Origin: a virus
UHGV virus genome: UHGV-0366526
Reading direction: 5' to 3' (one strand)
Length of the DNA: 37,294 nucleotides
Made by a program: the position numbers and the translations under genes. This document shows positions 3,638-33,524 of the stretch, piece after piece (position 1 is the first letter of the stretch; the number at the start of each line of letters is the position of its first letter). The notes under the pieces are model-generated. The model was not told the origin of the DNA and did not search any database. It worked only from the letters and a program-made list of their open reading frames with translations.

Positions 3638-4026
3638 CCTTTAAAGACCCGTATTCAGAACTTTACGAAGCGTTATTTGTCACTTTGGAGCAAACAGGCT
3701 ATGAAACCTATGGGCATTTGCCAGATGACGACGCTTCTTATCCGTTTGTTTTCTTAGGTGAACAATGGTCTAAGGATAGACAAACAAAAACAAGAACGTT
3801 AGGTTCAACAAATATTATGATTCATGTTTATGATCATGACGACAAACGTCGAGAATTAAATCAAGTATTAGCCGATGTGCGAAAAATCGTTCATGAATTG
3901 CATCAGACTAAGAACTTTAATTGGTTAGTGACAGAAAGTAGCACAGAAGTAATTTATGAAAATACAACCAATTTTGGTACGAGCCTTGCACACGGTGTAC
4001 TTGACATCACGTTAGAATTTGAATAA
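3634..4026 (+). CDS. Tail completion / tail terminator protein
   Basis: 130-aa ORF directly upstream of the major tail protein gene. Confidence 0.4.
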   Translation: MTFKDPYSELYEALFVTLEQTGYETYGHLPDDDASYPFVFLGEQWSKDRQTKTRTLGSTNIMIHVYDHDDKRRELNQVLADVRKIVHELHQTKNFNWLVTESSTEVIYENTTNFGTSLAHGVLDITLEFE

Positions 4027-4044
4027 GAAAGAAGGAAACTCGAA

Positions 4045-4650
4045 ATGGAAAAAGCAATTCAAGGTAAAAAAATTAAGTTAATGTTTCGACTAACACGTGA
4101 ACGTGCGACAACAGCAGCGAAGTTATTAGCTTTAGAAATTTCACACGAATATAAGTCAGAAACAAAAACAGATACACAATCAACAAAAGACGGGAATGTT
4201 CCTACCTCAGGAATGCCGTCAGCTTCCATCGAAATGGAATTTTTACGGACAGGCACAGAAACTTACAACATGTTGAAATATGCGTATCGTAACGGGCTAG
4301 AAATTGATGTATGGCGCATTAATTTTGATAAAAAAGACCCAAAAACAGGAAAATACGAAGCGGAATTTGGCACAGGCTTGTTGGATTCATTCGGAGATTC
4401 TGCCGAGTCCGATTCTAATTCAAGTATTAAACCAACTCTAGTTTTAAATGGTGACCTAGTAGAAGGTTGGGCAACGGTTGACGCCGAAAATGAAGAACTT
4501 GCGCGTGCTTTCTTCTACGACACAGTGGCTGGTGCGGAACCAGAAGAGCCTGTAGAAAAATACACACCAAAAACAATTGAAGTACCTAAAGTTGAAAGTG
4601 TAACGCCGACATCAGATGGCGCCGTTGTAAAAGTGAAGGAGGAAGAATAA
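4045..4650 (+). CDS. Major tail (tube) protein
   Basis: 201-aa ORF upstream of the chaperone pair and tape measure gene. Its C-terminal peptide VTPTSDGAVVKVKEEE is duplicated out of frame after the capsid gene (see findings). Confidence 0.65.
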   Translation: MEKAIQGKKIKLMFRLTRERATTAAKLLALEISHEYKSETKTDTQSTKDGNVPTSGMPSASIEMEFLRTGTETYNMLKYAYRNGLEIDVWRINFDKKDPKTGKYEAEFGTGLLDSFGDSAESDSNSSIKPTLVLNGDLVEGWATVDAENEELARAFFYDTVAGAEPEEPVEKYTPKTIEVPKVESVTPTSDGAVVKVKEEE

Positions 4651-14426: not shown

Positions 14427-15533
14427 ATGAAAAAAACTGTTAAATTATTAGTAGCTGGCGCAATGACCTTAGGTTTGATGTTACCAGTTGGCGTAGATGC
14501 TTATCAAATTGAACAAGACCCAATCAATTTTGGCGGTTATTTTCCTGGCTATGCAACCAATGAATTGATTGTATTGCATGAGTCAGGAAATGGAAACAAT
14601 GTCGGTCCAAATAGTTTAGACAATGAAACAGCATATATGAAACGAAACTGGCAAAATGCGTACGTTTCATATTTTGTTGGTTCTGGTGGACGCGTGAAAC
14701 AATTAGCACCAGCTGGTCAAATTCAGTGGGGCGCAGGACCAACAGCGAATGCAAAAGCCTATGCTCAAATCGAATTAGCACGAACAAATAACAAAGAAAC
14801 GTTCAAGAAAGACTATGCAGCCTATGTTAATTTGATTCGTGATTTAGCAACTCAAATCGGCGCAACATTTGATTTAGATGATGGTACAGGTTATGGGATT
14901 GTAACTCACGATTGGGTTACCAAAACTTGGTGGGGAGATCACACCGACCCTTACGGTTATTTAGCAAGTTGGGGAATTAGTAAAGCACAATTAGCACAAG
15001 ACTTACAAACTGGACTTCCAGAAGACGGTCATGATGTTATTGTAAACCCCGGCAAACCAAACAAGCCTAAATATAAAGTAGGGCAGAATGTTCGCTTTAC
15101 AACAATCTACAAAACTCCAGATGCGCCAATCGAGCAACATATCAATGCAAATACTTTATGGACACAAGTTGGTACAATCACACAGAAATTAGATGGTCGT
15201 AAAAACCTATATCGGATTGAAAATAGCGGTAAATTATTAGGCTATGCAAACGATGGAGATATTGCGGAGCTTTGGGAAAATAGCAAACCGAAACCAGCTA
15301 AAGTTTTTACTATCGGTGTAAATGAAGGAATTGTATTACGTGCTGGCTCACCTAGTCTATATGCGCCAGTATATGGTATTTGGCCAAAAGGCGCACAATT
15401 CCGATATGATTCTGCTCACGTGGCAGATGGCTATGTTTGGCTAGGTGGAACAGACTCAAACGGAACAAGAATTTACATTCCGGTTGGTCCAAATGATGGT
15501 GATCCAAATAATACTTGGGGAACTGGTTATTAG
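14427..15533 (+). CDS. Endolysin: N-acetylmuramoyl-L-alanine amidase (PGRP/Amidase_2-like) with N-terminal signal peptide and two C-terminal SH3b-like repeats
   Basis: The N-terminus MKKTVKLLVAGAMTLGLMLPVGVDA-YQ has n-, h- and c-regions with an AXA-like cleavage site. The central block HESGNG...WVTKTWWGDHTDPYGY is an amidase_2-type catalytic region. The C-terminus carries two roughly 65-aa repeats (YKVGQNVRF... / FTIGVNEGIVLRAG...) typical of SH3_5 wall-binding modules. Confidence 0.85.
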   Translation: MKKTVKLLVAGAMTLGLMLPVGVDAYQIEQDPINFGGYFPGYATNELIVLHESGNGNNVGPNSLDNETAYMKRNWQNAYVSYFVGSGGRVKQLAPAGQIQWGAGPTANAKAYAQIELARTNNKETFKKDYAAYVNLIRDLATQIGATFDLDDGTGYGIVTHDWVTKTWWGDHTDPYGYLASWGISKAQLAQDLQTGLPEDGHDVIVNPGKPNKPKYKVGQNVRFTTIYKTPDAPIEQHINANTLWTQVGTITQKLDGRKNLYRIENSGKLLGYANDGDIAELWENSKPKPAKVFTIGVNEGIVLRAGSPSLYAPVYGIWPKGAQFRYDSAHVADGYVWLGGTDSNGTRIYIPVGPNDGDPNNTWGTGY

Positions 15534-15663: not shown

Positions 15664-15761
15664 TTGAAAAATCTCTCAAAATTTTTTATAATATCCTTAC
15701 ATTTGGTGCATTATTAAATTTCTCGTTCACACTCTATCAATGATTGATAGGGTGCTTTTTA
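15664..15761 (+). ncRNA. Candidate small RNA unit 0 (promoter to terminator)
   Basis: TTGAAA at 15664-15669, 17-nt spacer, TATAAT at 15687-15692. Then about 60 nt ending in the hairpin CACTCTATCAA(15730-15740)/TTGATAGGGTG(15744-15754) plus CTTTTTATT. No ORF. Confidence 0.35.
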
Positions 15762-15764
15762 TTG

Positions 15765-15895
15765 TTGAAATTTAGAATAAATAGGTTTAAAATATAGTTA
15801 CCTTTTAATAAATTCATAGTATGACCTTCTTTTATTAATAATACAAGAAGGGTGCACCTATCTTTTTCCAAGTCCTAAGATAGGTGCATTTTTTT
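15765..15895 (+). ncRNA. Candidate small RNA unit 1 (promoter to terminator)
   Basis: TTGAAA at 15765-15770, 17-nt spacer, TAAAAT at 15788-15793. The transcribed segment has an internal hairpin CCTTCTT...AAGAAGG and the terminator TGCACCTATCTT(15853-15864)/AAGATAGGTGCA(15877-15888) plus T7 (15889-15895). Confidence 0.4.
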
Positions 15896-15896
15896 A

Positions 15897-16010
15897 TTGA
15901 AATATTTCTAAAGCTTGTATAAAATAGTAATAGGCCTTTTTGGTAAAGGTTGCATGGTTTTCTCAATTGTAACGGAGCTCTCTATGTTTTATAGAGAGCT
16001 CTCTTTTTTT
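15897..16010 (+). ncRNA. Candidate small RNA unit 2 (promoter to terminator)
   Basis: TTGAAA at 15897-15902, 17-nt spacer, TAAAAT at 15920-15925. Small hairpin CCTTTttggtAAAGG, then terminator GAGCTCTCTAT(15975-15985)/ATAGAGAGCTC(15991-16001) plus TCTTTTTTT. Confidence 0.4.
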
Positions 16011-16011
16011 G

Positions 16012-16116
16012 TTGAAATTCAAAAAAGAAAGCGGTAAAATATATTCACCAAACAATTTTATTTTTCATTTTATTACTACCTCTTGCCGCCTTTCCCCAAT
16101 GAGGCGGCATCTTTTT
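16012..16116 (+). ncRNA. Candidate small RNA unit 3 (promoter to terminator)
   Basis: TTGAAA at 16012-16017, 17-nt spacer, TAAAAT at 16035-16040. Then about 70 nt of U/A-rich sequence containing ACCUCU, ending in TGCCGCCT(16084-16091)/AGGCGGCA(16102-16109) plus TCTTTTT. Confidence 0.4.
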
Positions 16117-16212
16117 ACATAAAGTTAAGCAAAAATATTAATTTTAAAGTTAGTAACAGCATAGAAGTTGATAAAAATTTATAGTATAATTTTTAAAAGA
16201 GAGGTGCATATT

Positions 16213-16401
16213 ATGAAACAATTTAAAGCTCGAAAGAAACCTGTTACAGTTAATGCGTATCAAACTAGTAAAAAAATAGAAATCAAAACAATAGAAGGGA
16301 TACTTACTGCTCAACCAGGTGATTATATAGTTACTGGCATCGATGGTGAACAATGGCCTGTAAAGAAATCTATTTTTGAAAAAACATATGAACGTATTTA
16401 G
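16213..16401 (+). CDS. Hypothetical small protein (62 aa)
   Basis: Track start is TTG 16168. ATG 16213 lies 8 nt after AGAGAGG. Product is MKQFKARKKPVTVNAYQ...AQPGDYIVTGIDGEQWPVKK... Its stop abuts the stop of the convergent TIR-like gene. Confidence 0.45.
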   Translation: MKQFKARKKPVTVNAYQTSKKIEIKTIEGILTAQPGDYIVTGIDGEQWPVKKSIFEKTYERI

Positions 16402-16995
16402 TTATTTAGGTCTAACTTTGGTTTTACTTGCTATCTTTTCAGAACGTTTGTCATATGCTTTATCAATATATTTTTCAGGATTATTTTTGAAATTTTCCCA
16501 AGAAACAAGAACACAGTATCGTTCCTCTTCAGACCAACCACATCCTGAAGTTTTAGGTATATAGTAGTTGTAACTAAACTCTTTAACAACTGTTGAATCA
16601 TCAATAACTACAGTGTTTATTTCATGGCCCTTTCCGCATGAACAAGTATGTTTACCTTGATAGATTTTGTCTTGCGTAGATGGCAGAACTACACCGAGAA
16701 TTCCATTTTTTGGATTATCTTTACTAGTATAAAGAGACGCTTGTAATTCTCGTTTGATATAATTTTGAATTTCAAAAGGATCATTTTCTGAACTATGGGA
16801 TCCAATCAAATGAATTGTCACTGTTGAGTCAGAAAGATAATCTTCTCTTATTTTCCTCATGATATAATCTTCGTCATCAGAATTTATCGGAATATTTAGA
16901 GATTTATCAACCATATCAATATTTAAATCTTCTTGGATTATCCTTTTAAATTCAGCATCTTCTGTTTTAAAAGAAATAAAGCATTTATGCCCCAT
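16402..16995 (-). CDS. TIR-like domain protein (ThsB / DUF1863-like)
   Basis: 197-aa ORF. N-terminus GHKCFISFKTEDAEF and block STVTIHLIGSHSS...GILGVVLP parallel the ThsB-type TIR-like pattern (VFFSFHYQD ... SVTCVLIGSQT ... KIIGIHI). Strong RBS on the minus strand (GGAGGAGtgacttaaATG). Second gene of a two-gene operon. Confidence 0.65.
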   Translation of the reverse strand: MGHKCFISFKTEDAEFKRIIQEDLNIDMVDKSLNIPINSDDEDYIMRKIREDYLSDSTVTIHLIGSHSSENDPFEIQNYIKRELQASLYTSKDNPKNGILGVVLPSTQDKIYQGKHTCSCGKGHEINTVVIDDSTVVKEFSYNYYIPKTSGCGWSEEERYCVLVSWENFKNNPEKYIDKAYDKRSEKIASKTKVRPK

Positions 16996-17011
16996 TTAAG
17001 TCACTCCTCCA

Positions 17012-17440
17012 TTATTTTTTATTATGTTCTTCATTTTTATTCAAGCTAGCCCAATTAAGATTTTCTTGTGATATAATACTTTCAATTCTTTCAACAAAAT
17101 AACTGAAATTACCATCGGCATATACACCAGATTGGCACAAGTACATGTATTTCTCATGTCTAAGGGTTTCACATACAGTACGATATTCAATCCATAGTTC
17201 ACTAAACTTATTAAAGTTAGATATGCCTTCTGTAATAGTAATAACCACACCTAAACAACTAATTGCTATTTTAAAAATTAGGTTCTGCGAAGTGAAGTTA
17301 GCAACAAAAGGTATTAACGCAGCAACAAGAATAACAATTGTTTTGCAAATAGTATTTCTTCTTTTAGCTTTTTTACTTTTTGTATCATACCATTCTATTT
17401 GCTGATCTACTCGGTCTCTTAAATAGTCTTTTTCATCCAT
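17012..17440 (-). CDS. DUF4231 / SLATT-type two-TM effector-like protein
   Basis: 142-aa ORF. N-terminal YLRDRVDQQIEWYDTKSKKAKRR, then two hydrophobic helices (ICKTIVILVAALIPFVANF and LIFKIAISCLGVVITITEGI), then an 60-aa cytoplasmic tail. RBS AAAAGAGGGGGAGattataATG on the minus strand. Confidence 0.6.
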   Translation of the reverse strand: MDEKDYLRDRVDQQIEWYDTKSKKAKRRNTICKTIVILVAALIPFVANFTSQNLIFKIAISCLGVVITITEGISNFNKFSELWIEYRTVCETLRHEKYMYLCQSGVYADGNFSYFVERIESIISQENLNWASLNKNEEHNKK

Positions 17441-17461
17441 TATAATCTCCCCCTCTTTTAA

Positions 17462-17477
17462 TAGTTTAATTATATCA
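17462..17477 (-). promoter_or_regulatory. Candidate extended -10 promoter (TGnTATAAT) for the SLATT/TIR operon
   Basis: The minus strand reads ...TTTACAAATGATATAATTAAAC... The TATAAT is the complement of plus 17469-17474, with TG at plus 17476-17477. It lies about 30 nt upstream of the ATG at 17440. Confidence 0.35.
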
Positions 17478-17539
17478 TTTGTAAATATATTTTCTAGGTA
17501 TATTTTTTGATTTGATAAATAAGAACATTTTTGCTTTCA

Positions 17540-17613
17540 GGACCATTAGCTCAGCTGGTTAGAGCAAACGGCTCATAACCGTTCGGTCACAGGTTCGAGT
17601 CCTGTATGGTCCA
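17540..17613 (+). tRNA. tRNA-Met (anticodon CAT; elongator-type; tRNA-Ile2(LAU) cannot be excluded)
   Basis: 74-nt cloverleaf. Acceptor GGACCAT/ATGGTCC with discriminator A. D-arm GCTC-AGCTGGTTA-GAGC. Anticodon stem AACGG/CCGTT with loop CTCATAA. T-arm ACAGG-TTCGAGT-CCTGT. G1-C72 is paired, so it is not an initiator. No encoded CCA. Confidence 0.85.
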
Positions 17614-17687
17614 TATATATTTATTTGCAAATAAAATAATAGAGGAGTAGACTTAAAGTATCAAATATTTAAGGAGTGTTATCTATT

Positions 17688-17939
17688 ATGTCAAACTATG
17701 AAGAAAAAGAAGCAAAAGCATTAGTAAAAATTGCGGATGTTTTGAACAAACTGGATTCGAATTTAGAAGAATTAGATTCTCTAAATGAAGATGCAAAAAA
17801 ACATAGTATGAAAAAATGGATTGTTGAGAAAAGAGCCATGCATGAAATTAAAAAGATTGCACATGAAGCTGGTAAGTATGATAAATACGATGAAAAAGAA
17901 TTGCAAAAAGAAATTGAGCATGTAGAACACTATATGTAA
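17688..17939 (+). CDS. Hypothetical charged coiled-coil protein (83 aa)
   Basis: Track start is GTG 17676. ATG 17688 lies 11 nt after AAGGAG. Followed by a bidirectional terminator. Confidence 0.4.
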   Translation: MSNYEEKEAKALVKIADVLNKLDSNLEELDSLNEDAKKHSMKKWIVEKRAMHEIKKIAHEAGKYDKYDEKELQKEIEHVEHYM

Positions 17940-17945
17940 AAATAA

Positions 17946-17976
17946 AAACTATTCCTTTTTTAAGGAATAGTTTTTT
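17946..17976. terminator. Bidirectional intrinsic terminator
   Basis: Stem AAACTATTCCTT(17946-17957)/AAGGAATAGTTT(17962-17973), 12 bp with loop TTTT, flanked by A-run and T-run, between convergent ORFs 17688..17939(+) and 17960..18211(-). Confidence 0.55.
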
Positions 17977-18211
17977 GTATTTTCCGCACACACATTTTCA
18001 CCACAACTAGTTGCCTTTTTTGATTATACCTACCATAAACAGCAAGCTCTGTGCCATCAGGTAACATGAGTAATTCATCCGCCAATTCTTTTTTAGAAAT
18101 AATGCAGTTGATAGTCTCTTTTTGAGTTTGCAAAGAAAAGCGGACTAACATTTCTGGATAAGTAGTTAATACCTTAATTTTATGAATTGTTCCTACATAA
18201 TTTGGTTTCAT
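17960..18211 (-). CDS. Hypothetical protein (83 aa)
   Basis: Track start is TTG 18220. ATG (plus 18209-18211) lies 9 nt after AAGGAG on the minus strand. Confidence 0.4.
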   Translation of the reverse strand: MKPNYVGTIHKIKVLTTYPEMLVRFSLQTQKETINCIISKKELADELLMLPDGTELAVYGRYNQKRQLVVVKMCVRKIQKTIP

Positions 18212-18280
18212 AGAAATCAACTCCTTGCTAGTAGTTAACTATATTATAGTAAGATTATTTTTATTCGTCTAGGTATGAAA

Positions 18281-18520: not shown

Positions 18521-19675
18521 TTAAAAGCCGATGTATTTCGATAGTTTTTCGGTAGTTTTTTCTTTTCCATCATTTGTTAGATGTGTATAAGTATCTAAAG
18601 TTGTTTTTATGTTTGCATGTCCTAATCGTTCCTGAACTTCTTTATGATCTGCCCCAGCATAATATAATAAAGATGCATGCGTGTGTCTAAATCCGTGAAG
18701 CCCAATGTTTGGTAAGTTAGCCTTTTTACGATAAATATTATATCTATCTGTAATAGCTTGATTTATTGTAAATTCATTTTCTTCATTGGTGAAAATATGT
18801 GAGGGTTGTGTATAACCAAGTTTAAGAAGATATTTTTTTTGCTCTAATTTCCATTTTTTTAAGATAGTTATTGTTTTTGCATCTAATATTAGTGTTCTGT
18901 TTGATTTTTTTGTTTTTGGAGTATTTGATACATAATAATGGTCAGATTTAGCAATTGTTTTGTTGATTTGTAGTTCACCAGTTTTAATGTTTAAATCGTC
19001 CCAAGTAAGAGCTAACAACTCCCCTATCCTACATCCACTAAAAGCTAATAATCTGAATAATGTATAATCTCTTATTGTAATGTAGGTACTTTCGCTTTGT
19101 TCAATACTTTTTAAAAATATTTGAAGTTGATCTTTTGTATAAAATTTAATTTTCTTTTCTGATGTAATAATATCTTGATTTTTAGGAACTATTACATTAA
19201 TCACTGGGTTTTGATTGGTAACCCCTATGTTAATAGCGAATTTGAAGACTTGATTCATATAATTTATAAAAAGGGGATATTGTTTTGAACTACCTTTTGA
19301 ATGCCATGTATTCACGATTTTCTGACAATAAGCAGTTGAAATTTTTGATATTTCAATTTTTCCAAATGAAGGTAGTATGTGTTTTCTGAAAATTATTTCT
19401 GTTCGAGAGTAGCTACTTTCTTTTACGGTATTTTTATAATTTTCTAGCCACATAAATGCTACTTCTTGGAATGTTATATTAGTAGAAGAGGGAATACCAT
19501 TTTTTTGAATTTCCATTTCTAACCTTGCTAATGCAATTTTAGCCTCTTTTTGAGTGCGAAATCCTCTTTTAGTTGTATACTTCTTTTTTCCAGTTAGCGG
19601 ATCGGTACCAAGATATATTTTGAAGTACCATGCTTTTTCACCATTTTTCTTTTGATATTGTTTTATCATTGCCAT
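18521..19675 (-). CDS. int: Tyrosine site-specific integrase
   Basis: 384-aa ORF. The C-terminal catalytic region HGFRHTHASLLYYAGADHKEVQERLGHANIKTTLDTYTHL fits the R...HxxR...Y motif. N-terminal SAM-like/arm-binding domain. Confidence 0.9.
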   Translation of the reverse strand: MAMIKQYQKKNGEKAWYFKIYLGTDPLTGKKKYTTKRGFRTQKEAKIALARLEMEIQKNGIPSSTNITFQEVAFMWLENYKNTVKESSYSRTEIIFRKHILPSFGKIEISKISTAYCQKIVNTWHSKGSSKQYPLFINYMNQVFKFAINIGVTNQNPVINVIVPKNQDIITSEKKIKFYTKDQLQIFLKSIEQSESTYITIRDYTLFRLLAFSGCRIGELLALTWDDLNIKTGELQINKTIAKSDHYYVSNTPKTKKSNRTLILDAKTITILKKWKLEQKKYLLKLGYTQPSHIFTNEENEFTINQAITDRYNIYRKKANLPNIGLHGFRHTHASLLYYAGADHKEVQERLGHANIKTTLDTYTHLTNDGKEKTTEKLSKYIGF

Positions 19676-33452: not shown

Positions 33453-33524
33453 TGGGATATAGCTTAACTGGTAGAGCAGCGGTCTCCAAAACCGTCGGTA
33501 TAGGTTCGAGTCCTATTGTTCCAG
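33453..33524 (+). tRNA. tRNA-Trp (anticodon CCA)
   Basis: 72-nt cloverleaf. Acceptor TGGGATA/TGTTCCA (U1-A72, two G-U pairs), U8. D-arm GCTT-AACTGGTA-GAGC. Anticodon stem GCGGT/ACCGT with loop CTCCAAA. Variable loop CGGT. T-arm ATAGG-TTCGAGT-CCTAT. Discriminator G, as in bacterial tRNA-Trp. Confidence 0.75.

Follow-up and report, generated by a model that had tools for sequence, protein, structure and literature searches.

A predicted type VII Thoeris cassette with a conserved convergent PGDYG-family gene in a temperate Enterococcus faecalis phage

How does a temperate phage that carries an abortive-infection system avoid aborting itself? The question is raised by a cassette in the virus genome UHGV-0366526, a stretch of 37,294 nucleotides (nt; hereafter the window) that is an Enterococcus faecalis temperate siphophage. 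Two minus-strand genes, thsH and thsB, encode a membrane protein of the SLATT/DUF4231 family and a TIR protein of the ThsB type, respectively, and a small plus-strand gene of the PGDYG family runs towards them and ends at the thsB stop codon. By sequence, the two-gene core adds one more member to type VII Thoeris, and the small gene belongs to it as a conserved third gene in the phages of Bacillota. An earlier note made from the letters of the window had described the two minus-strand open reading frames (ORFs), their positions and lengths, the GGAGGAG motif 8 nt before the second ATG in a 16-nt gap, and a location in the accessory region between endolysin and integrase, opposite to the late operon; all of this was confirmed. 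The elements of the cassette are listed below (aa, amino acids).

17012-17440, minus strand: thsH, a predicted 142-aa SLATT/DUF4231 effector with two transmembrane segments
16996-17011, minus strand: intergenic spacer between thsH and thsB, 16 nt, with the Shine-Dalgarno motif GGAGGAG, read from the sequence
16402-16995, minus strand: thsB, a 197-aa ThsB-type TIR protein with a Cys/His-bearing C-terminal extension
16213-16401, plus strand: small PGDYG-family gene, 62 aa, ATG at 16213, the proposed third component
17469-17496, minus strand: promoter-like site of thsH-thsB, TAGAAA, 16-nt spacer, TG-n-TATAAT (extended -10)

The 142-aa protein matched the DUF4231 (E-value 2.7e-24) and SLATT_1 (E-value 3e-12) families of Pfam and the SLATT_1 family of NCBIfam (E-value 2e-37), as had been predicted for it. 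Significant matches were confined to DUF4231 and SLATT, and no Macro domain was found. A hydropathy scan showed two hydrophobic segments, at about residues 30-48 and 54-74. The AlphaFold2 model, built with 38 homologues (predicted local distance difference test score, pLDDT, 88), was all-helical with helices at residues 3-48, 54-77, 79-101 and 112-139, in which a long N-terminal helix leads into the first transmembrane helix, followed by a tight hairpin, the second transmembrane helix and two more helices. The hydrophobic segments and the modelled hairpin agree with the earlier count of exactly two transmembrane helices, but the "short cytoplasmic tail" ascribed to the protein is in fact a conserved 65-residue helical domain that makes up its C-terminal part. 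Twenty-two residues were invariant among the 38 homologues (R10, Q14, I15, Y18, D19, K21 and S22; R87, E91, L93, E96 and K97; and a set spanning E117-W130), and P44 was the only one within the two hydrophobic segments. A sequence search of the PDB with the SLATT protein gave nothing significant, and Foldseek of its model against the PDB gave generic helical bundles only.

The 197-aa protein had been proposed to follow the ThsB-type TIR pattern, and it indeed matched Pfam ThsB_TIR (PF08937) at residues 6-108 (E-value 4e-8) and, over its full length, PADLOC ThsB (E-value 1e-15). The hydropathy scan showed no hydrophobic segment in ThsB, and a PDB sequence search with it gave nothing significant. 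Residue E83 aligned with the conserved Glu in all validated ThsBs that were compared and was invariant in 121 family members; when 14 ThsBs (types I and VI-IX) were aligned, its column was one of three that did not vary. By comparison with BcThsB, we take the Glu83 position to be the catalytic one. The Cys/His cluster that the earlier note called inserted is present, and it is a general trait of this long-ThsB subfamily, with C118, C120, H124, C152 and C161 near-invariant in 121 members. The CxC and C161 positions align with Cys residues of type VI TIRs from Escherichia coli, and positions 118-161 may form a metal-binding sensor module.

Most close relatives of ThsH are accompanied by a short TIR (130-140 aa), as opposed to the 197 aa of the window ThsB with its C-terminal extension. 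Long TIRs paired with a SLATT protein were also seen in prophages of E. faecium and Companilactobacillus and in Javan277, a Streptococcus satellite phage, and gene spacing suggests the pairing in other Javan phages and satellites as well. An adjacent TIR gene on the same strand was found in at least 32 of 80 species-representative SLATT loci and in 76 of the 79 viral SLATT loci from IMG/VR.

A survey of TIR operons in December 2025 named the combination of TIR and SLATT proteins type VII Thoeris, with ThsH as the effector (bioRxiv 10.64898/2025.12.03.692087). In that work, three type VII TIRs belonging to different TIR clusters made canonical cyclic ADP-ribose (cADPR) in a phage-dependent manner, added cADPR arrested the growth of cells with type VII systems, and ThsH responded to cADPR and not to 2'cADPR or 3'cADPR (bioRxiv 10.64898/2025.12.03.692087). 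The SLATT effectors are presumed to be membrane-breaching toxins, and in an AlphaFold3 model of ThsH the cytoplasmic region has pockets with positive charge where protomers meet (bioRxiv 10.64898/2025.12.03.692087). The type VII system of Bacillus licheniformis SCCB 37 is activated by cADPR and showed both an infection-dependent signal and defence (bioRxiv 10.64898/2025.12.03.692087).

A homologue search with the window ThsH led to a DUF4231 protein of B. licheniformis (P0168), to which it shows 48% identity along the entire length (142/144 residues), and the TIR gene downstream of P0168 (L003:4432-4836) translates identically to the ThsB of B. licheniformis SCCB 37 in Table S1 of the survey. 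Because P0168 neighbours the sequence of a validated type VII ThsB and the gene order is equal, the window ThsH can be regarded as a homologue of a validated ThsH. Both systems have the SLATT effector directly upstream of a ThsB-type TIR with tight spacing, both lie in prophage-like surroundings beside lysis genes, and a homologous 65-aa PGDYG gene abuts thsB in B. licheniformis too. However, the B. licheniformis TIR, with 134 aa, is of another subfamily than the 197-aa window TIR with its Cys/His extension and shows no significant BLASTP similarity to it.

Comparison with the other Thoeris types showed what is shared and what is not. In types I and II, too, infection triggers a ThsB-type TIR to generate a signal that is read by a separate effector, but their effectors are a SIR2-SLOG ThsA and a Macro-domain transmembrane protein, respectively, whereas the partner in the window is a bare SLATT protein. 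No SIR2 or SLOG match was found at the window, where the neighbours of thsB are the SLATT protein, the PGDYG protein and a tRNA. The profile matches, together with the lack of SIR2, SLOG and Macro domains, thus bear out the earlier view of a Thoeris-like system distinct from types I and II. In type VI, the TIRs of E. coli S1 and ACN001 (32% identity) resemble the window TIR in their long form, the YIMRKIRE motif, the CxC and a C-terminal YCxxV...EKYID, but the effector is a DUF6650 protein (ThsG) and the signal is 2'cADPR. In type VIII, the ThsB of IMG 2638011284 and the TIRs of TIR-ThsI-TIR operons of Dorea and Coprobacillus resemble the window TIR over the full length (72-74% identity), including the Cys cluster and Glu83, but the effector is a 408-aa MAP3K_TRAF_bd/TPR-S protein ("CMP hydrolase + TPR") instead of a SLATT protein. 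No ThsI-type effector, by which type VIII is recognized, lies beside thsB in the window, and the type VIII operons inspected (L005-L008) have no PGDYG gene. With a ThsB-type TIR, its conserved Glu, a SLATT gene in the same operon and an effector homologous to a validated one, the two-gene core is assigned by sequence to type VII, and the cassette would probably protect against phage. The novelty of a "minimal arrangement" claimed in the earlier note is lost, since the TIR-SLATT pair has already been validated as type VII (bioRxiv 10.64898/2025.12.03.692087). The core is by now ordinary, and its two proteins are already annotated as "TIR domain-containing" and "DUF4231 domain-containing" in the RefSeq record of Enterococcus phage vB_EfaS_IME197.

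The type VIII-like operons L005-L008, on gut metagenome contigs carrying the protein P0103, each have two different ThsB genes (136 and 194 aa) around a ThsI-like gene. They lie between IS66 elements, beside a gene for an 837-aa TIR_2+TPR protein.

What would the cassette do? We consider it probable that it protects the Enterococcus lysogen from other phages by abortive infection. When a heterologous phage infects, ThsB would convert NAD+ at its Glu83 site to a cyclic ADP-ribose isomer, most likely canonical N1-cADPR. This signal would bind the conserved charged cytoplasmic face of ThsH, formed by R10/Q14/Y18/D19/K21/S22 of the N-terminal helix, R87/E91/E96/K97 and E117/R118/E120/S124/E126/N127/W130, whereupon ThsH would oligomerise and breach the membrane, and the cell would be killed or arrested before the invader matures. 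The small PGDYG protein may modulate the system or switch it off by binding the signal or ThsH, so that the phage would escape its own Thoeris in lytic growth, or leaky activation would be buffered. Two points weigh against this picture of the core. The defensive role, the identity of the signal and the membrane damage are all attributed to the cassette by homology, and three of the four Bacillus type VII systems tested in the survey gave no defence (bioRxiv 10.64898/2025.12.03.692087).

A different division of labour would make the TIR itself the effector, acting through NAD+ depletion, with the SLATT protein as its membrane anchor or sensor. Some bacterial TIR proteins are NADases that deplete NAD+, and neither protein of the window has an evident sensor domain, which would fit such a scheme. 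Still, the scheme is highly improbable, because added cADPR alone arrests cells with homologous type VII systems, which places ThsH downstream of the signal (bioRxiv 10.64898/2025.12.03.692087). Apart from P44, moreover, none of the conserved residues of ThsH falls within its two hydrophobic segments, which fits an effector that binds a ligand.

For the abortive-infection reading, the next question is which signal the window ThsB makes. Canonical cADPR is somewhat favoured on the present sequence comparisons, because the ThsH homologue answers cADPR and not 2'cADPR or 3'cADPR, and because the nearest TIRs, 72-74% identical, pair with a ThsI-type (MAP3K_TRAF_bd/TPR-S) type VIII effector that is itself cADPR-responsive. 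These nearest homologues come from gut Clostridia with TIR-(MAP3K_TRAF_bd+TPR-S)-TIR operons, and the closest relative in the table of the preprint, IMG 2638011284 (73% identity), is listed there as type VIII-associated. Types VII and VIII both respond to cADPR and are occasionally found in one operon (bioRxiv 10.64898/2025.12.03.692087). The occurrence of the window TIR type with a type VIII effector elsewhere fits a signal common to types VII and VIII and a swapping of sensors between them, and the TIR/SLATT mix here has the look of sensor modules traded among systems with one signal. The effector homology and the type VIII link form two independent lines to cADPR as the most likely signal, with 2'cADPR as the main alternative.

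In that alternative the architecture would be the same, and ThsB would make 2'cADPR or another ADPR-derived molecule to which the ThsH lineage has adapted. The window TIR falls in cluster 2741407742 of the preprint together with three tested type VI TIRs (those of E. coli S1, ACN001 and a Gammaproteobacteria scaffold), and no member of this cluster is documented as a cADPR maker; both facts count against cADPR. Three type VI TIRs are reported to make 2'cADPR, although the available text of the survey does not specify which three (bioRxiv 10.64898/2025.12.03.692087). Identity of the window TIR to the three type VI TIRs of its cluster is 31-32%; with the two E. coli proteins it also has in common a long Cys-bearing C-terminal extension, and the window ThsH is only 48% identical to the validated ThsH. 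On the other hand, the far closer TIR relatives pair with a type VIII effector, both types VII and VIII answer canonical cADPR, and all three assayed type VII TIRs made cADPR despite their different TIR clusters (bioRxiv 10.64898/2025.12.03.692087). We thus regard a signal other than canonical cADPR as unlikely, though it deserves to be kept in mind.

The third gene was identified through its protein, which matched Pfam PGDYG (PF14083) with an E-value of 2.4e-6 and 28.3 bits against a cut-off of 27, the match covering one half of the 102-position profile, and matched phrog_419 with an E-value of 2e-20. In its AlphaFold2 model (pLDDT 91), six strands make up an SH3/Tudor-like barrel and the C-terminus is a short helix. 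Searches with this fold gave generic barrels only, a PDB search with the PGDYG profile gave nothing significant, and PADLOC and NCBIfam held no model for the protein. Literature searches on DUF4231 with TIR, on PGDYG and on PF14083 gave nothing relevant to the third gene. The available parts of the type VII description do not mention a small convergent gene and present a two-gene system, as opposed to the three genes of the window (bioRxiv 10.64898/2025.12.03.692087).

The association of this gene with SLATT was counted with a hidden Markov model built from six copies, in the 80 species-representative genome loci and the 79 IMG/VR SLATT loci. Among the former, 15 of the 17 TIR-bearing loci of Bacillota had a PGDYG gene. 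In the viral set, a PGDYG gene on the opposite strand adjoined SLATT in 78 of 79 loci; 40 loci had the layout SLATT>TIR><PGDYG and 36 the layout SLATT><PGDYG TIR>. In a curated phage collection SLATT occurred in 34 records, at least 31 of which were also among the top PGDYG matches listed, with the PGDYG gene typically 0.4-0.65 kb from the SLATT gene; the background of any PGDYG match was about 1.5% of phage records. The distance between the stop codons of the small gene and its neighbour ranged from a 4-nt overlap to 13 nt in all Bacillota prophage loci inspected. The small gene travels with the cassette, whether on the lysin side or the integrase side, with three TIR subtypes and in unrelated phages and satellites, and the short clade of 62-66 aa was found only beside SLATT. 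It thus tracks the SLATT effector and not the TIR type, and by these counts the phage-borne type VII systems of Bacillota are three-gene modules with the PGDYG gene as a conserved protein-coding member. The earlier note had treated the convergent small ORF as a source of antisense read-through; that it abuts thsB is correct, but it is a conserved protein-coding member of the cassette and not a mere source of antisense RNA.

Two observations speak against a general need for the third gene. No PGDYG gene was found in the non-Bacillota loci of the 80-locus set, and two validated systems of proteobacterial origin are listed with the gene IDs of TIR and effector only (bioRxiv 10.64898/2025.12.03.692087). 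The third gene is therefore not needed for the core mechanism. The same facts would fit a two-gene system in which the PGDYG gene is a common phage hitch-hiker with no functional link. PGDYG-like proteins do number 23,377 cluster representatives and are present in over 700 phage records, most of which have no SLATT; a longer paralogue is found in the early region of staphylococcal prophages, and PADLOC has no PGDYG model. This explanation is nevertheless improbable, given that 78 of the 79 SLATT genes in viral loci have PGDYG beside them whereas its background frequency is about 1.5% of phage records, that it is retained in two layouts (one of them with the gene between SLATT and TIR), with three TIR subtypes and at varied genome positions, that it is part of an insertion-deletion difference from phage SEsuP-1, and that the short 62-66 aa clade is confined to the vicinity of SLATT.

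Further copies of the gene were seen in satellites and prophages. Streptococcus satellite phage Javan277 (L097, 4498-5715) carries SLATT, a 197-aa TIR and a convergent PGDYG gene. Satellites of Streptococcus intermedius and S. oralis carry the same three-gene module directly after an XRE regulator. The longer PGDYG paralogue of Staphylococcus prophages (L183-L185) has 86 aa, about 41% identity and an insertion of about 25 residues; it lies in the early region between dUTPase and RinB, with no SLATT or TIR nearby.

What might the conserved small protein do? The PGDYG family has 23,377 cluster representatives and is common in phages, including virulent Herelleviridae. Two of its members are fused to anti-Thoeris proteins. 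A 216-aa metagenomic phage protein consists of an N-terminal PGDYG-like domain and a complete Tad1 (E-value 2e-39 to PDB 8kbe/7uav), and a 182-aa protein of Latilactobacillus phage TMW 1.2272 P1 consists of an N-terminal PGDYG-like domain and a complete Tad2 (E-value 7e-17 to 8wjd, 9eib and 8sme). Both fusion genes lie just upstream of a DNA methylase gene in the phage early region. Tad1 and Tad2 are structurally unrelated, and both are anti-Thoeris sponges; they block classical Thoeris signalling but not type VII (bioRxiv 10.64898/2025.12.03.692087). Two independent domain fusions thus tie the PGDYG family to both known anti-Thoeris sponges, which supports, but does not prove, an action of the PGDYG domain on Thoeris signalling, for example by binding cADPR or ThsH. 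Since Tad1 and MoTad2 fail to neutralise types VII and VIII (bioRxiv 10.64898/2025.12.03.692087), an undiscovered inhibitor of type VII is to be expected, and the PGDYG protein is a concrete candidate for this inhibitor, or for a regulator, of the Thoeris types that signal with cADPR.

We tentatively propose that the small protein could be a Thoeris modulator or anti-Thoeris factor, either a cADPR sponge or a ThsH inhibitor, with a role in self-immunity; the proposal is possible rather than probable. If it were true, the prophage cassette would have a built-in off switch, whose convergent expression collides with that of thsB-thsH. Free-standing or Tad-fused relatives may likewise serve as counter-defence against cADPR-based Thoeris types beyond the reach of Tad1 and Tad2. 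Tad1 and Tad2, and by analogy Crn2/AcrIII-1 in type III CRISPR, offer a comparison: like the window protein, Tad1 and Tad2 are small and widespread in phages including virulent ones, but they are found in anti-defence clusters, whereas the small gene of the window sits inside a defence cassette. Neither in sequence nor, to a significant degree, in fold did its protein resemble Tad1 or Tad2 (DUF2829). Several results temper the proposal. No more than two fusions were found among the 23,377 family representatives, PGDYG-like genes are common in phages with no link to Thoeris, type VII loci outside Bacillota do without the gene, and a Pfam scan of 63 longer PGDYG-like proteins showed mostly unknown, heterogeneous extensions and no recurrent partner.

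A third apparent case, the adjacency of PGDYG and Tad2 in Ruegeria phage 45A6, was rejected, as the hhalign probability of the upstream gene was below 1%. The virulent Herelleviridae phage vB_AviM_AVP of Aerococcus (L187, 2255-2686) has a 143-aa protein annotated as "PGDYG protein". Its gene has a PnuC nicotinamide-mononucleotide transporter gene at a distance of about 350 bp and a nucleoside 2-deoxyribosyltransferase gene in the vicinity, which is one anecdotal link to NAD-related genes.

The extended -10 promoter of the earlier note was recovered as a promoter-like site at 17496-17469 on the minus strand (TAGAAA-16-TG-n-TATAAT); in the consensus scan it had 10/12 matches plus the TG, and it is predicted only. 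Promoter-like sites in the region overall showed no enrichment (21 found versus 17.6 expected). The ribosome-binding site (RBS) AAGAGGGGGAG precedes the thsH ATG at 17440, and downstream the thsH stop codon TAA (17014-17012), the GGAGGAG (17010-17004) and an 8-nt gap lead to the thsB ATG at 16995, all read from the sequence. The small gene may have a promoter and leader of its own.

16162-16212, plus strand: putative promoter and leader for the small PGDYG gene, TAGAAG, 17-nt spacer, TATAAT at 16185-16190, RBS AAGAGAGG

This putative promoter was read from the sequence and is absent from the consensus-scan list, and the leader resembles that of thsH. The two leaders form the arms of an imperfect 25-nt inverted repeat (I2; 16180-16204 and 17450-17474, 76% complementary), and both contain TATAAT...TTAAAAGAG(A/G)GG, so that the two convergent units have similar -10/RBS regions. 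The repeat could be due to chance in AT-rich DNA. The small gene and thsB are convergent and end to end, with 0 nt between their stop codons; as there is no space for terminators, the two transcription units must collide or interfere with each other. A terminator scan found no plus-strand terminator-like site between the stop of the small gene (16401) and the tRNA-Met gene (17540-17613), and transcription from 16012 or 16162 could therefore run antisense through thsB-thsH. Such a transcript could go on to feed the tRNA-Met and the ORF at 17676-17939 and end at a bidirectional terminator at 17944-17975.

This layout also bears on a toxin-antitoxin-like addiction module, in which the ThsH toxin would be checked by the PGDYG protein or by antisense RNA and the prophage thereby stabilised. 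SLATT proteins are presumed membrane-breaching toxins (bioRxiv 10.64898/2025.12.03.692087), the small gene converges on thsB and abuts it, so that transcription overlaps, and the small protein tracks the effector and not the TIR type. However, 76 of 79 viral loci keep a TIR with an intact catalytic Glu, the homologous system of B. licheniformis showed infection-dependent signal and defence (bioRxiv 10.64898/2025.12.03.692087), and non-Bacillota loci persist without the small gene, which together make an addiction module very unlikely.

As a tightly spaced pair with a promoter-like site to themselves, thsH and thsB run against the late operon and occupy the accessory slot between endolysin and integrase. 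The endolysin (Amidase_2+SH3_5) at 14427-15533 lies on one side, and the tyrosine integrase (18521-19675), followed by an ImmA-like protease and a cI-like repressor, lies on the other. With the cassette about 870 bp from the endolysin, and with amidase/holin neighbours also in B. licheniformis and in loci L089-L091, the SLATT protein might be taken for a lysis-related protein of the phage, either holin-like or a membrane protein that times lysis. Phage_lysozyme (PF00959) upstream of a SLATT relative in 12 of 55 genome loci would point the same way. Against this, the orientation of the cassette is contrary to that of the late operon, a promoter-like site of its own precedes it, and it is coupled to a TIR; elsewhere the cassette is found beside integrases and distant from lysis genes, and related phages without the cassette at this site remain complete phages. 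A lysis function is extremely unlikely. A holin was rejected as a candidate identity for thsH, which is on the opposite strand, about 1.5 kb past the endolysin stop, is paired with a TIR gene and has a separate promoter-like site. The loci surveyed for lysozyme (L050-L086) are mostly metagenome-assembled genomes of Acidobacteriaceae, in which most loci have no adjacent TIR, and the lysozyme matches were not assigned to single loci. A SLATT-like protein with two transmembrane helices next to a lysozyme may represent a different, lysis-type use of the fold.

Related phages bear on how the cassette came to this slot. Positions 16012-17615 are 99.5% identical to Enterococcus phage vB_EfaS_IME197, while the flanks diverge. 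The shared block is bounded by two elements.

16012-16123, plus strand: left boundary element of the block, promoter-like TTGAAA-17-TAAAAT and hairpin terminator at 16084-16109
17540-17613, plus strand: tRNA-Met (CAT), right boundary, found by ARAGORN and by Rfam (tRNA, 71 bits)

The left element is 94% identical to positions 4001-4111 of phage SEsuP-1 (L002), and the tRNA-Met is also present in phages phiFL4A, EFC-1 and SEsuP-1. In SEsuP-1 only 195 bp separate the left element from the tRNA-Met, and all three genes are missing from this interval, indicating that the cassette is a discrete insertion in the endolysin-integrase accessory slot; the small PGDYG gene is part of this insertion-deletion difference. 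The earlier note had proposed horizontal acquisition from the AT-richness of the region. The acquisition stands, better backed by the 99.5% block shared with IME197 and the SEsuP-1 difference, but the AT-richness does not distinguish the cassette, because the G+C content of the whole lysogeny module (0.26-0.32) equals that of the cassette (0.29-0.32; late genes, 0.33-0.41).

An annotated abortive-infection (Abi) gene adjoins the shared block in IME197, where it follows the tRNA-Met (L001, 6751-7713). The window has instead small ORFs after the tRNA-Met, at 17676-17939 (plus strand) and 17960-18220 (minus strand), which are unrelated to the IME197 gene and have no Pfam match. The slot after the tRNA-Met is a variable accessory or defence hotspot.

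The interval between the endolysin and the cassette (15664-16110) contains four promoter-like TTGAAA-17-TA(T/A)AAT sites (at 15664, 15765, 15897 and 16012), with which three hairpin terminators (15730, 15974 and 16084) alternate. Two of these promoter/hairpin units form a 46-nt direct repeat (15757-15802 and 16004-16049, 76% identical). The units could be small RNA or micro-ORF units; Rfam gave no match in 15664-16110, and the only RNA that it found in the region was the tRNA. A second phage tRNA, tRNA-Trp (CCA), lies far from the cassette at 33453-33524 on the plus strand.

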